DNA from: a virus
Taxonomy: Duplodnaviria; Caudoviricetes
Length of the DNA: 53,386 bases
Reading direction: 5' to 3' (one strand)
Virus record (IMG/VR): IMGVR_UViG_3300040807_002454
Coordinates: 1 to 53,386 of that record
The notes beneath the pieces were generated by a model. That model was not told where the DNA came from. It saw nothing but the letters and a program-made list of their open reading frames with translations, and made no database searches. This document shows positions 12,161 through 49,954 of the stretch, in pieces. Within the stretch, counting starts at the first letter, position 1. Each line of letters opens with the position of its first letter. Made by a program: the position numbers and the translations under genes.

Positions 12161-12197
12161 GAATTAGGTCTTTCTAGAGTAAGAAAGACCTAAAACA

Positions 12198-12620
12198 TCA
12201 GATACTCTTTAAGAGTTTTTTCGCCTGCTTACGCAATGCATCGCCACCTTTTGCTTTTAATGCCTCCAAATCAGCTGATTTAGCTAACTCTAAAATCTCC
12301 TGTACTTCTTTCTTTACAGAAGACATCTTAGTCTGTTTTATGTATAAATCTTTTTTATACTCAAAAACAGCTTTCACTACTTCAATTTGTAAAGATAGAG
12401 TAGAATCTTCCCCTACATTAGTCAAAGTTTCTACTTCTGTAGTCTTCCTTAATTTTGAAAGCTCTCTAAGAGCATAGTTAAGGGACGGACGTTGATTCTC
12501 ATTATTATCCATCTCCCTGCTAAAACAGGCATGTAAATCAAATAATTGTTCAGTGCTAACCCAACCTTTAACGGTTGGAAACTTTAACTTTTGTATTAGG
12601 GCTTGTTTGAAAATGTCCAT
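12198..12620 (-). CDS. conserved phage hypothetical protein
   Basis: IF.QA...KLKF.TVKG.VSTEQLFDL N-terminus, recalled as a phage family paired with the upstream gene. Confidence 0.65.
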   Translation of the reverse strand: MDIFKQALIQKLKFPTVKGWVSTEQLFDLHACFSREMDNNENQRPSLNYALRELSKLRKTTEVETLTNVGEDSTLSLQIEVVKAVFEYKKDLYIKQTKMSSVKKEVQEILELAKSADLEALKAKGGDALRKQAKKLLKSI

Positions 12621-15946: not shown

Positions 15947-16021
15947 GTAAAAGGACTAAAAGCCCTAAAAGTCTAAAAGACTCAAGGGCTTTAAGTAAAT
16001 TTTTCCATCCATCCCTCCCTT

Positions 16022-27049: not shown

Positions 27050-27121
27050 ATATTACACCATATATATATATGGTATAAGAGCATTGTCCTCATAATGACA
27101 CAAGGACAATGCTAAAAGATC

Positions 27122-47110: not shown

Positions 47111-48712
47111 ATGTGTAATTGCACTAAAACTATAGAATGTACTACCTGTAATGAATGTACTACATGTTGTACATGTCCAGATACTATCTCTACTACAGCT
47201 ATACCGTTAGATGGATGTGAGGTAGTGGAGTATTGTTCTGATGGATGTGTAGAACTTGTTCAAGATGAATGTGTAGTAACTAGGTGTGGCACGTTAGAAG
47301 AAGTTATAGATGAGTTATTTGATGAGGATTGTAATGCTATTCCAGGATGTAGAACGTTTGGAGAAGCTCCTGTTATAAATGTCTGCCAAAATGAAGAAGC
47401 AGATGTTATGCAGATTTGGTTAGATAGTAACCCTACTCTTACAGAAGGTATTGTTCATCCTATCTTAACGCCAGAGTTTGTAGGTTCAGATGTATTCACG
47501 CCTACTATAGTAGGTACATATCTATTTCAATTTAGTCAGTTTGACCCTTGTTTTAATGGGCAATTGATTACCTTAAATGTTGTAGATTGTGTGGGATTAT
47601 GTCCTGAATCTATTACTATAGCAAATGCTTACAATAGTCAGACTGATATATTTGACTTTACATTAACGTCTCCATTTCCAGAAGATTCTATTTATAGAAT
47701 TAAAGTTACTTTACCTGATACTACTTTAGTAGCAGAAATAGAAACAAGTCCTGGAGATATTACACTAGTAGGAAATCAAATAGATGCTACAAATTGGAAT
47801 AATTTTGATCAGTATTTATCTGCTATTGTTTTAAATGCTGCTAATCTTAATATGGGAATTAGCTTTACGTTTGACAAAGAACAATGGGCTATAGATAATG
47901 GATACACATACAATTCCAATGAAAACACAGATGCTACACAATTAATCTTTGAATTTTCAATTGAGAAACCTAACTGTGATGTAGAGACCGGCACTACTAC
48001 TGTAAACAGAGTAGTTGGAGCTATGTTAGGAGCTGCTTATCCATTATACGATAATGGAACAACGCCAGGTATTTTGAGGTATGTATTACAGACAGGAAAT
48101 ACACTTGTATCTCCAGTTTTTGCAACACATACTGTAAGTGTAGCAACTGAAATACCAGCTACAGCAATTCCTTTAACTACTACTACTGTTACGCCTACCC
48201 AAATAGAAACTACTTATACAGTAGCTCCTTTTGGAACTGTACCTACTACTTTAAATAGATATGATTTAAATGGTACTACAGATTTAGGACATGCCTTTAC
48301 ATCTAGAGGATTTGAAGCATCTGGTTATGACTTTACTATATTACATTTAATAGATAGCTTTACAAAACAGGAAGAAGCTGCTAATTATAATATTGACTTA
48401 TTATTCAGATGCTATTTCCAAGAAGCTCATTGGGATGAAACTACTATAGAAGCTAAGACTCATTTTAATTCAATAGGAGGCATTCCAATAACTACACCTC
48501 TCACACTTACAGTATCAGGATCTACATCAGTCGCATCTACACATATATATGATGCAGTAGAACCTGCCACTTTAGCAGTAGGTACTTATCAATTATATAG
48601 TTCTTTCCTTTGTGACTTTAACTATGATAATGGAGTAGATGGCCCAGAAGGGGCTACAGTACAGAAAACTGCCTTCCAGTTTAGTGAACTGGAATTAAAT
48701 TATATTTACTAA
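47111..48712 (+). CDS. putative fibre/decoration protein with Cys-rich N-terminus
   Basis: Dense Cys in the first ~165 aa, then a Thr-rich beta-type region. Confidence 0.55.
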   Translation: MCNCTKTIECTTCNECTTCCTCPDTISTTAIPLDGCEVVEYCSDGCVELVQDECVVTRCGTLEEVIDELFDEDCNAIPGCRTFGEAPVINVCQNEEADVMQIWLDSNPTLTEGIVHPILTPEFVGSDVFTPTIVGTYLFQFSQFDPCFNGQLITLNVVDCVGLCPESITIANAYNSQTDIFDFTLTSPFPEDSIYRIKVTLPDTTLVAEIETSPGDITLVGNQIDATNWNNFDQYLSAIVLNAANLNMGISFTFDKEQWAIDNGYTYNSNENTDATQLIFEFSIEKPNCDVETGTTTVNRVVGAMLGAAYPLYDNGTTPGILRYVLQTGNTLVSPVFATHTVSVATEIPATAIPLTTTTVTPTQIETTYTVAPFGTVPTTLNRYDLNGTTDLGHAFTSRGFEASGYDFTILHLIDSFTKQEEAANYNIDLLFRCYFQEAHWDETTIEAKTHFNSIGGIPITTPLTLTVSGSTSVASTHIYDAVEPATLAVGTYQLYSSFLCDFNYDNGVDGPEGATVQKTAFQFSELELNYIY

Positions 48713-48715
48713 TTT

Positions 48716-48746
48716 TTTGAAATATTAATTTTTAATTCTATCTTTA
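48716..48746 (+). promoter_or_regulatory. Bacteroidota-type promoter of the tRNA cassette
   Basis: TTTG (48716-48719), 19-nt spacer, TATCTTTA (48739-48746; one mismatch to TAnnTTTG). Confidence 0.6.
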
Positions 48747-48750
48747 TATT

Positions 48751-48804
48751 GTGAAACTAAGACTTACATACCAGCATAGTTCTTTATCGTGGTCAAACAC
48801 GTAA
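48751..48804 (+). CDS. putative 17-aa leader peptide MKLRLTYQHSSLSWSNT
   Basis: GTG AAA CTA AGA CTT ACA TAC CAG CAT AGT TCT TTA TCG TGG TCA AAC ACG TAA; the stop lies in attenuator segment 2. Confidence 0.6.
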   Translation: MKLRLTYQHSSLSWSNT

Positions 48805-48873
48805 GGGATTTGGTATGTTATATTTACAATACTATAAAGTCCCTTACGATTAATTTTGTAAGGGGCTTTTTTT
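48766..48873 (+). promoter_or_regulatory. transcription attenuator (1:2 protector, 2:3 antiterminator, 3:4 terminator)
   Basis: 1:2 = 48766-48818. 2:3 = 48800-48811 with 48837-48848. 3:4 = 48836-48849 with 48856-48869, plus T7. Confidence 0.75.
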
Positions 48874-48874
48874 A

Positions 48875-48947
48875 TTCCAAAGTAGTTTAATTGGTAAAAC
48901 ATCTGTTTGTGGAGCAGAAGTAAGTAGTTCAAATCTACTCTTTGGAA
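48875..48947 (+). tRNA. tRNA-His(GTG) with T-1:A73, no encoded CCA
   Basis: (T)TCCAAAG/CTTTGGA(A), D GTTT/AAAC, TCTGT-TTGTGGA-GCAGA, AGTAG-TTCAAAT-CTACT. Confidence 0.9.
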
Positions 48948-49000
48948 CATTAGGACTAATACATAGAGAGTACACTTTTCTTTTTACTAAATACTAAAAA

Positions 49001-49234
49001 ATGAGACAATTTATTACAGATTTAAAAACAGGAAGAAAATTCATTGTAGAGCCTATTTCTGAACATGCATATAGAAATGCAGATTGGAATAATGGTTTAA
49101 AAGAATCAGATAAACCAAAAGGAGGAGCAATTCATCCTGACGATTCTATTATTACAGAAAAGACCTGTAAAAATATTACTATGACTGATGGAAGTCCTTA
49201 TTCAGTAATTGAAAAATTATTAAAATCTACTTAA
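49001..49234 (+). CDS. small protein inside the tRNA cassette
   Basis: TGRKFIVEPI...W...GAI...DSIITE...KNI....GSP...IE; function unknown. Confidence 0.7.
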   Translation: MRQFITDLKTGRKFIVEPISEHAYRNADWNNGLKESDKPKGGAIHPDDSIITEKTCKNITMTDGSPYSVIEKLLKST

Positions 49235-49261
49235 AGACACTTATATTGGAAAGATTTTAAT

Positions 49262-49344
49262 AGAGAGTAAACTTACAAGGTGTAAGAACATCCTGCTAAG
49301 ATGATTGTAGGTAAAACTATGGGATTCGAGTTCTCTGCTCTCTG
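49262..49344 (+). tRNA. tRNA-Ser(GCT), no encoded CCA
   Basis: AGAGAGT/GCTCTCT + G73, CATC-CTGCTAA-GATG, long variable arm, TTCGAGT T loop. Confidence 0.85.
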
Positions 49345-49350
49345 CAAATT

Positions 49351-49424
49351 GGCTCATCAGCAAGTGGGGTTGCAAACTGATTCCAAACCAGTTGTTTTAG
49401 GAAGTTCGATTCTTCCGTGAGTCG
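49351..49424 (+). tRNA. tRNA-Trp(CCA), no encoded CCA end
   Basis: GGCTCAT/GTGAGTC + G73, ACTGA-TTCCAAA-CCAGT (one mismatch), GGAAG-TTCGATT-CTTCC. Confidence 0.8.
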
Positions 49425-49442
49425 CATATACTCTAATATTTG

Positions 49443-49480
49443 ATAAGGAATAACATTAATTTGTTATTCCTTATTTTTTT
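49443..49480 (+). terminator. intrinsic terminator closing the tRNA cassette
   Basis: 13-bp stem ATAAGGAATAACA/TGTTATTCCTTAT followed by a T tract. Confidence 0.8.
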
Positions 49481-49531
49481 GCGTATCTTATCTATAGAGT
49501 TTTCCAGTAAAAAGTAATAATAAATATTATT

Positions 49532-49954
49532 ATGAATAGACCTTCTACAAAATATACCTTCTTAGCAGATAAAGAATACCCGAGTAATTTTAAGATTTTA
49601 AGAGAATTTGCTAAAGAAGTAGTAAAAGAATTAAGAGCTAATCCTGATGGCGTTCAACTTCCATTAGGGTTTGTTCAGATAGTACGTAGACTGCGTTCTT
49701 CTAATAATGCCACAGTAAAGAAGAAGTATGGTAAGTCTTATAAATTTACTAATGATAATACAGATGGTGCTATCATAACTACTAGAGCTTGGTTTGTAAC
49801 TAATGCATATAACCATGCTAGAGACAAAAGTAATGGTAAATATTATTCTGCGGCTTTTATTAGGCTTTTTAAAGTAGAGTGGTATAAACCTTTAAAGAAA
49901 GTTCAATATGATATTGCTCAAACTATGGAATACTTAAACTACAGAATATTTTAA
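49532..49954 (+). CDS. IHF-like protein of the tail module
   Basis: NPDGVQLP.LG.V.I and FTN..TDG motifs; position before the tail tube genes. Confidence 0.55.
   Translation: MNRPSTKYTFLADKEYPSNFKILREFAKEVVKELRANPDGVQLPLGFVQIVRRLRSSNNATVKKKYGKSYKFTNDNTDGAIITTRAWFVTNAYNHARDKSNGKYYSAAFIRLFKVEWYKPLKKVQYDIAQTMEYLNYRIF

Follow-up and report, generated by a model that had tools for sequence, protein, structure and literature searches.

The virus record IMGVR_UViG_3300040807_002454, a tailed-phage sequence of 53,386 bp with a completeness estimate of 40% and a G+C content of 33% (the whole of which is called the window below), carries in front of a small transfer RNA (tRNA) operon an element that is probably a working ribosome-mediated, or leader-peptide, transcription attenuator feeding back on tRNA supply. 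The element consists of a short leader open reading frame (ORF) and of three RNA helices, a terminator, an antiterminator and an anti-antiterminator, placed before tRNA genes whose anticodons match codons of the leader. This core of the original prediction, which had been made from the letters of the window, was upheld by the geometry and statistics of the window and by 18 independent units in other phages, and we hold the units of the giant phages to be attenuators with somewhat more confidence than the unit of the window. Re-reading of the sequence, gene callers and a terminator scan likewise placed the leader ORF, the three helices, the run of seven T (T7), tRNA-His, the ORF of 77 amino acids, tRNA-Trp and the second terminator where they had been predicted.

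From the architecture, from the register of the leader and from its match in composition, all of which are observed, we infer pausing, read-through and feedback. The attenuator would gate read-through into an operon of tRNA-His, the 77-residue ORF, tRNA-Ser and tRNA-Trp. If charged His, Ser or Trp tRNA ran short, for which host anticodon nucleases, codon demand and starvation are candidate causes, the ribosome would pause at the codons for these amino acids, helix 1:2 would be opened and segment 2 left free; helix 2:3 would then form, the terminator would not, and the polymerase would enter the tRNA genes. With ample supply, it would go on to the stop codon and cover segment 2, helix 3:4 would form and transcription would end at 48873. 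Since the products are the same tRNAs that are tested by the leader, the loop would be one of direct negative feedback on tRNA supply.

The leader ORF and its codons

The leader ORF (48751..48804, + strand) begins with GTG at 48751-53, has Lys as its second codon and runs for 17 codons to a TAA stop at 48802-04, which lies inside segment 2. It holds single copies of the three regulatory codons, CAT for His at 48775, AGT for Ser at 48778 and TGG for Trp at 48790, and these match tRNA-His(GTG), tRNA-Ser(GCT) and tRNA-Trp(CCA) downstream; the other three Ser codons of the leader are TCN. As a control we used the small ORFs of 12-25 codons in all six frames of this genome (n=613), of which 17 hold the His, Ser and Trp codon classes together and six hold them in the same order. 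In terms of residues, His, Ser and Trp make up 6 of 16 in the leader against 9.8% expected (p 0.003), a value reached by 10 of 337 control small ORFs, and by 4 of 337 if all three amino acids are also to be present.

The register of the ORF relative to the helices was followed by masked folding of the nascent RNA up to 48855, with an assumed ribosome footprint of -18 to +12 around the codon in the ribosomal A-site. With A-site codons up to TGG at 48790, 8-11 pairs of helix 2:3 were kept, whereas from 48793 onward, the stop codon included, zero pairs were left. The His, AGT-Ser and Trp codons thus all fall within the part of the ORF where the pairs of 2:3 survive pausing.

The alternative helices and the terminator

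In the minimum free energy fold, the anti-antiterminator, helix 1:2 (48766..48818, + strand), is built of three stacked stems (48766-74/48810-18, 48780-86/48802-08 and 48788-91/48798-48801), and the His and Ser codons sit in its internal loop. The antiterminator, helix 2:3 (48800..48848, + strand), pairs 48800-11 with 48837-48 over 12 nt at 92% complementarity, and its 5' strand contains the leader stop codon. Helix 3:4 (48836..48873, + strand) is an intrinsic terminator in which 48836-49 and 48856-69 form 14 pairs around a 6-nt loop, followed by T7 at 48867-73, and it ends 2 nt short of tRNA-His. The three helices are mutually exclusive and nearly isoenergetic, with isolated energies of -21.2 kcal/mol for 1:2, -19.9 for 2:3 and -19.5 for 3:4.

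The folding of the leader is far from what its base composition would give. The 128-nt leader folds at -44.1 kcal/mol against a shuffle mean of -20.7 (z -7.4), and an equally stable fold was obtained in 0 of 200 shuffles. The 2:3 duplex (-18.4 kcal/mol) was matched by 2 of 2000 dinucleotide shuffles and by none of 1203 other 88-nt windows of the genome, and the antiterminator partner at 48799-48812, located at the 3' end of the leader ORF (which ends at 48804), was reached by 0 of 1000 shuffles.

A three-helix design of this kind is common to attenuators that sense proteins and RNAs, and it could be argued that the element is a true attenuator driven by another signal, in which a protein, a small RNA or an uncharged tRNA, the last in the manner of a T-box, binds the leader and chooses between 2:3 and 3:4. 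By eye, the His codon and a purine are unpaired in the internal loop of helix 1:2, and segment 2 is followed closely on its 3' side by four bases with which an A-CCA end could pair, the discriminator of tRNA-His being A; the Rfam search also gave weak rows for the PyrR family (26.5 bits) and the trpB motif (28.7 bits). However, no Rfam family reached its gathering score in the leader (Phe_leader 17.5 against 55, trpB motif 28.7 against 59, PyrR 26.5 against 54 bits), the trpB motif and PyrR rows align mainly to the terminator, and the T-box riboswitch is absent among 22 Rfam matches up to E = 10. In the analogues described below, moreover, it is the amino acid composition of the leader and not one specifier that tracks the tRNA arrays, which points to translated leaders. 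We therefore regard a signal other than the ribosome as improbable.

A second small ORF (48815-48853, + strand) starts with ATG at 48815, has 12 codons, four of them Tyr, and ends with TAA at 48851-53 in the terminator loop. It might be the operative one, given its ATG start and the overlap with segment 3, across which its translation would block the terminator; its own start is buried in helix 1:2. The window has no tRNA-Tyr, however, and the layout is seen in no analogue, which makes this explanation very improbable indeed.

Units of the same layout in giant phages

The same logic appears to operate before the tRNA arrays of several giant phages, the window unit being the smallest version seen. 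Across 28 sources, a terminator-like hairpin abuts the 5' end of 8 of 116 tRNAs (one of the eight is an arm of the preceding tRNA), and upstream of several such terminators short ORFs were found that mirror the composition of the array. In all, 18 units in which a short ORF is followed by a terminator and a tRNA array were collected from the records G002, G004, G005 and G006 and the contigs L013, L016, L021 and L022. G004 (363 kb), G005 (372 kb) and G006 (366 kb) are complete giant-phage records, and G002 is a fragment.

Most of the 18 units fall in four leader families. In the first, present in four genomes, the arrays consist solely of Pro, His and Gln tRNAs, and the leaders share an aligned 8-residue core that is purely Pro, Gln and His in 4 of 4, with diverged flanks. 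The second, also from four genomes, has arrays solely of Lys and Tyr tRNAs. The third serves Asp, Leu, Ala, Glu, Met and Val and was found in G004, G005, L013, L016 and probably G002. In the fourth, a family of long leaders, the arrays serve ten or eleven amino acids with as many as 28 tRNAs, and residues of the array's set account for 37 of the 41 in the leader of G004 and for 38 of the 42 in that of G006.

Of 17 scored units, 16 have a leader in which the amino acids of the array that follows are over-represented (p < 0.05), and in 16 of the 17 every amino acid of the array is present in the leader (the leader of L022 lacks the second Met). The score of the leader is equalled by no other small ORF of its locus in 14 of the 17 units. 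When leaders and arrays were permuted, with one unit per family plus the window and in two representative sets, the true pairing was the best of 720 permutations; without the window it was the best of 120. An unbiased scan of G005 and G006 for an exact -7 box, the first ATG ORF and a terminator gave seven units, and the array is fully represented in the leader in all seven, while the same scan returned no unit at the array regions L096 and L098. Ten units were tested for an antiterminator strand within the 3' portion of the leader ORF, and in eight of them it outdid 95% of shuffles. The exact -7 box lies at most 70 nt upstream of 11 of 14 leader starts (the window being counted in the 14), against 3.7% expected, and at seven analogue loci all 53 of 53 Rfam matches were tRNAs.

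The giant-phage units resemble that of the window in the order of ORF, terminator and tRNA genes, in leaders enriched in the amino acids of the array, in an antiterminator strand at the 3' end of the ORF, in a 77-residue ORF within the operon, and in Lys as the second codon (11 of 13 analogue leaders). They differ in having ATG starts, an exact -7 box followed by a 5' untranslated stretch, and larger arrays, and they have no sequence similarity to the window leader. The analogue leaders have 17-44 codons and precede arrays of 4-28 tRNAs, and the scans that gave them looked for ATG starts only.

tRNAs with a CTA anticodon, which read amber codons, occur in the arrays of G002, G004, G006 and the Stenotrophomonas phage DLP_6 (L083 14740-14825; L081; L100; L089 4289-4360). 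Such tRNAs may be a sign that stop codons are reassigned or suppressed in these phages.

Relatives of the leader and the 77-residue protein

It was proposed in the original prediction that homologous cassettes could be collected with the 77-residue protein as bait. This did bring up analogues with leader, terminator and tRNA genes, and it brought up no diverged homologue of the window leader. The bait gave 25 loci, with tRNA genes beside the ORF in 16 of the 25. A blastn comparison of the leader with these loci found it only in the near-identical L006, the 24 others being without it, and in the record with the closest homologue of the 77-residue protein (G001) both of two tRNAs are without a leader. 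The window leader was unmatched in the phage collection, and a three-piece DNA pattern made from it gave 26 viral loci, of which none is similar and none is followed by a tRNA. No close relatives of the 77-, 140- and 305-residue proteins were found in viral contigs, and tblastn of the longest giant-phage leader against cultured phages gave no match. The leader is unchanged in the 57.5-kb metagenome contig L006 and in the DNA runs X11 and X6, with zero differences over 48665-49161. Apart from four runs that are possible sources, sequence near-identical to 48300-49700 of the window is recorded in 16 public runs, which belong to 12 studies of estuary, seawater, freshwater and marsh. One further run matching this region carries the label of an organism and not of a metagenome, and has the phage on a 93-kb contig.

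The 77-residue ORF (49001..49234, + strand) represents a conserved small-protein family without an assigned Pfam or PHROG. The protein has no Pfam, PHROG or atlas match and no Foldseek match at E <= 0.001, its best VIA Z is 2.5, and its AlphaFold2 model has a predicted local distance difference test (pLDDT) value of 82.5. Its closest homologues, at 58-64% identity, are in other contexts. In L004, L013, L016 and L022 the family ORF is the first gene after the terminator, and in L011/L086 it comes second, after one tRNA, which is the order of the window. A homologue also lies inside the tRNA array of the cultured phage DLP_6 (L089), an array that is not grouped by amino acid. A gene for transfer-messenger RNA is found 196 nt after a homologue of the family in a small metagenome contig (L010 1625-1943). 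In the window, a 15-nt direct repeat, 93% identical, flanks the ORF at 48963-48977 and 49260-49274; the 5' end of tRNA-Ser forms the second copy, and the 77-residue ORF may thus have inserted next to or into the junction between tRNA-His and tRNA-Ser.

Transcription data and points against an attenuator

Upstream of the leader is a gene of 533 amino acids with its stop at 48712, and between the two lies a promoter-like string (48716..48746, + strand) made of a four-base upstream box, a 19-nt spacer and an eight-base box at 48739-46, which fits the Bacteroidota -7 pattern at 7 of 8 places. The loop of the terminator also holds a perfect -7 box, at 48851-58. Matches to the promoter-like pattern are no more frequent in the window than expected (10 seen against 15.1), and a scan of the window for sigma-70-type promoters was at chance (25 seen against 22.6 expected).

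Four public runs, the two DNA runs and two metatranscriptome runs from different studies (X15 and X16), were compared as contigs only, so that their ends are not transcript ends and their depth cannot rank the parts of the region, and DNA carry-over is possible in the RNA runs. Each metatranscriptome run has a long contig that extends without a gap from the upstream gene over the promoter-like string and reaches 48789 or 48801 inside the leader. A single contig of an RNA library covers 48818-49369, across the terminator, tRNA-His, the 77-residue ORF and tRNA-Ser. The gaps between contigs at 48790-48817 (X15), 48802-07 (X16) and 49381-49474 (both) carry no evidential weight. Both RNA runs end at 49369 where the DNA runs continue; this hints only weakly, if at all, at an end or a reverse-transcription stop inside tRNA-Trp. 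The RNA-library contigs are compatible with a transcript start at 48750 as well as with none. With a pattern that is not enriched and contigs of two studies that run through it, the dedicated promoter and leaderless transcript that had been proposed were not borne out.

These contigs also bear on another explanation, namely that the region is the plain end of the upstream structural-gene transcript. Helix 3:4 would then be the terminator of that transcript and helix 1:2 a hairpin that stabilises or processes its 3' end, the tRNAs would stem from constitutive leak-through and RNase P, and the ORF with its codons would be coincidental. Besides the contigs that run from the upstream gene into the leader, such an end would be in keeping with the weak start codon of the leader, with the RNA-library contig that begins at 48818, the last base of helix 1:2, beside letters that resemble an adapter, and with the presence of a hairpin directly upstream at all four tRNA loci of the window, the one at tRNA-Arg being terminator-like. 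It leaves unexplained, however, the 12-pair complementarity of 2:3 with its 2 in 2000 shuffles, the position of the ORF stop in segment 2, the codon match (17/613 and 4/337 in the controls) and the recurrence in other phages of leader, terminator and tRNA units matched in composition. On this evidence we consider a plain transcript end unlikely.

Several observations nonetheless weigh against reading the window element as a leader-peptide attenuator. No diverged homologue of the leader turned up, the only other copies found being identical, and it starts with GTG in an ordinary context, while ATG dominates both the genes of the window and the analogue leaders. On a weight matrix built from 46 gene starts of the window, which were picked for their ATG start among 58 ORFs of at least 100 amino acids, the context of the GTG scores 0.0, below 87% of true starts and equalled by 14% of all positions. 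Each regulatory codon is present once, with no run, and three of the four Ser codons, being TCN, are not read by tRNA-Ser(GCT). The exact -7 box of the analogue units is missing upstream of the window leader, where there is a 7-of-8 match only, and the other three tRNAs of the window have their hairpin directly upstream without a leader ORF that holds cognate codons. Among the analogues, the leader of L021 is not enriched (p 0.10; its array is cut by the contig end), and that of L016, outside the 17-unit scoring, has 12 of 55 residues in its set (p 0.41), its frame, taken from the first ATG, being long and its array ending with the contig after four tRNAs. Two other analogues did not pass the antiterminator test, as 130 and 115 of 1000 shuffles equalled them, and in the units with two candidate ORFs (U2, U7 and U9) the upstream ORF was chosen.

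The tRNA genes and the genome context

All three tRNA genes of the cassette lie on the + strand. tRNA-His (GTG; 48876..48948) was called by ARAGORN and scores 66.8 bits with the Rfam tRNA model. Bacterial tRNA-His usually has a G-1/C73 pair; here (48875-48948) there is T at -1 and the discriminator is A. At 48901, position 26 of this tRNA, an RNA-library contig of X16 has G for the A of the DNA at a depth of 6.8, for which strain variation, an error or a modification signature could each account. tRNA-Trp (CCA; 49351..49425) was also called by ARAGORN, and in Rfam it appears solely as a weak match to the model for selenocysteine tRNA (24.1 bits). The prediction of the downstream tRNAs thus stood for tRNA-His and tRNA-Trp, whereas tRNA-Ser (GCT; 49262..49345) is sub-threshold, being called by neither default ARAGORN nor Rfam and appearing in ARAGORN only at a lowered threshold of 90%. 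The cassette is closed by a terminator (49442..49479, + strand) of 14 pairs followed by a T run, with its hairpin at 49442-75.

The stable hairpins directly upstream of tRNA-Met, tRNA-Arg and tRNA-Lys are located at 12161-12200, 15947-16021 and 27050-27121 (- strand). Before tRNA-Arg there is in addition a Shine-Dalgarno-like purine run with a small ATG ORF, in a genome otherwise without such sites. The first start is ATG in 46 of the 58 window ORFs of at least 100 amino acids, and a Shine-Dalgarno-like core precedes 2 of these 46 ATG-started genes. At window gene starts A is strongly over-represented from -13 to -9, and G and C are shunned from -13 to -4; this A-rich, G/C-poor upstream stretch fits initiation without a Shine-Dalgarno site.

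Relation to known attenuators

Leader-peptide attenuators are known from the trp, his, thr, leu and ilv operons, and the pheST leader (pheM) and the T-box riboswitches tie aminoacyl-tRNA synthetase genes to tRNA charging. With the leaders of amino acid operons (trp, his, pheA and others) the window element shares a short ORF with regulatory codons, the choice between helices 1:2, 2:3 and 3:4, an intrinsic terminator, and a stop codon at a position where a ribosome that completes the ORF would block segment 2. Unlike them, it would regulate tRNAs and not enzymes, so that the sensed species and the product belong to the same class of molecule; it is found in a phage, starts with GTG, and has several amino acids in one leader with their codons once each and not in runs. 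Like pheM and the T-box, it would couple a component of translation to the charging of its own tRNA through termination and antitermination, but pheM controls a synthetase where the window element would control tRNAs, and the T-box works by direct binding of tRNA and has conserved sequence elements for which there is no match in the window leader.

The passages of PMC3082878 that treat the pheA leader (pheL) describe an attenuation logic that is shared by the window element, and they name pheR as a tRNA-Phe gene affecting pheA attenuation. An attenuator before the E. coli tRNA-Phe gene pheV was also considered; this candidate was refuted, as the approximately 100 nt between yqgA and pheV hold neither a leader ORF nor a terminator. 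In a search of full-text literature, the scope of which did not extend to subscription journals and supplements, no description of a leader-peptide attenuator before phage tRNA genes was found, and as far as a term search of PMC2965389 reaches, tRNA genes and phage are unmentioned there. What appears new to us relative to known leaders is that tRNA genes are the target, that one leader serves several amino acids, and that the setting is a phage.

Implications for phage tRNA genes

Phage tRNA genes are usually viewed as constitutive patches for codon usage or as decoys against host tRNA nucleases, and to our knowledge the control of their expression is largely unknown. If the attenuator operates as proposed, a phage would gauge decoding capacity codon by codon and replenish only those tRNAs that are running short, and the feedback would be the simplest possible, since the tRNAs made would end the very pause by which they were induced. 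The giant-phage units offer a comparative data set of four leader families, each matched to its array, and they would account for the grouping of arrays by amino acid. On balance, we favour the view that phages from roughly the 130-kb class to giants of 360 kb arrange tRNA genes in attenuator operons whose leader peptide is composed of the amino acids that the controlled tRNAs carry, each group being transcribed on demand once translation slows at its own codons and silenced again by the tRNAs it yields, with the 77-residue protein as a conserved, co-regulated partner. The leader units would in this way mark an uncharacterised family of small proteins as part of a module for tRNA supply.

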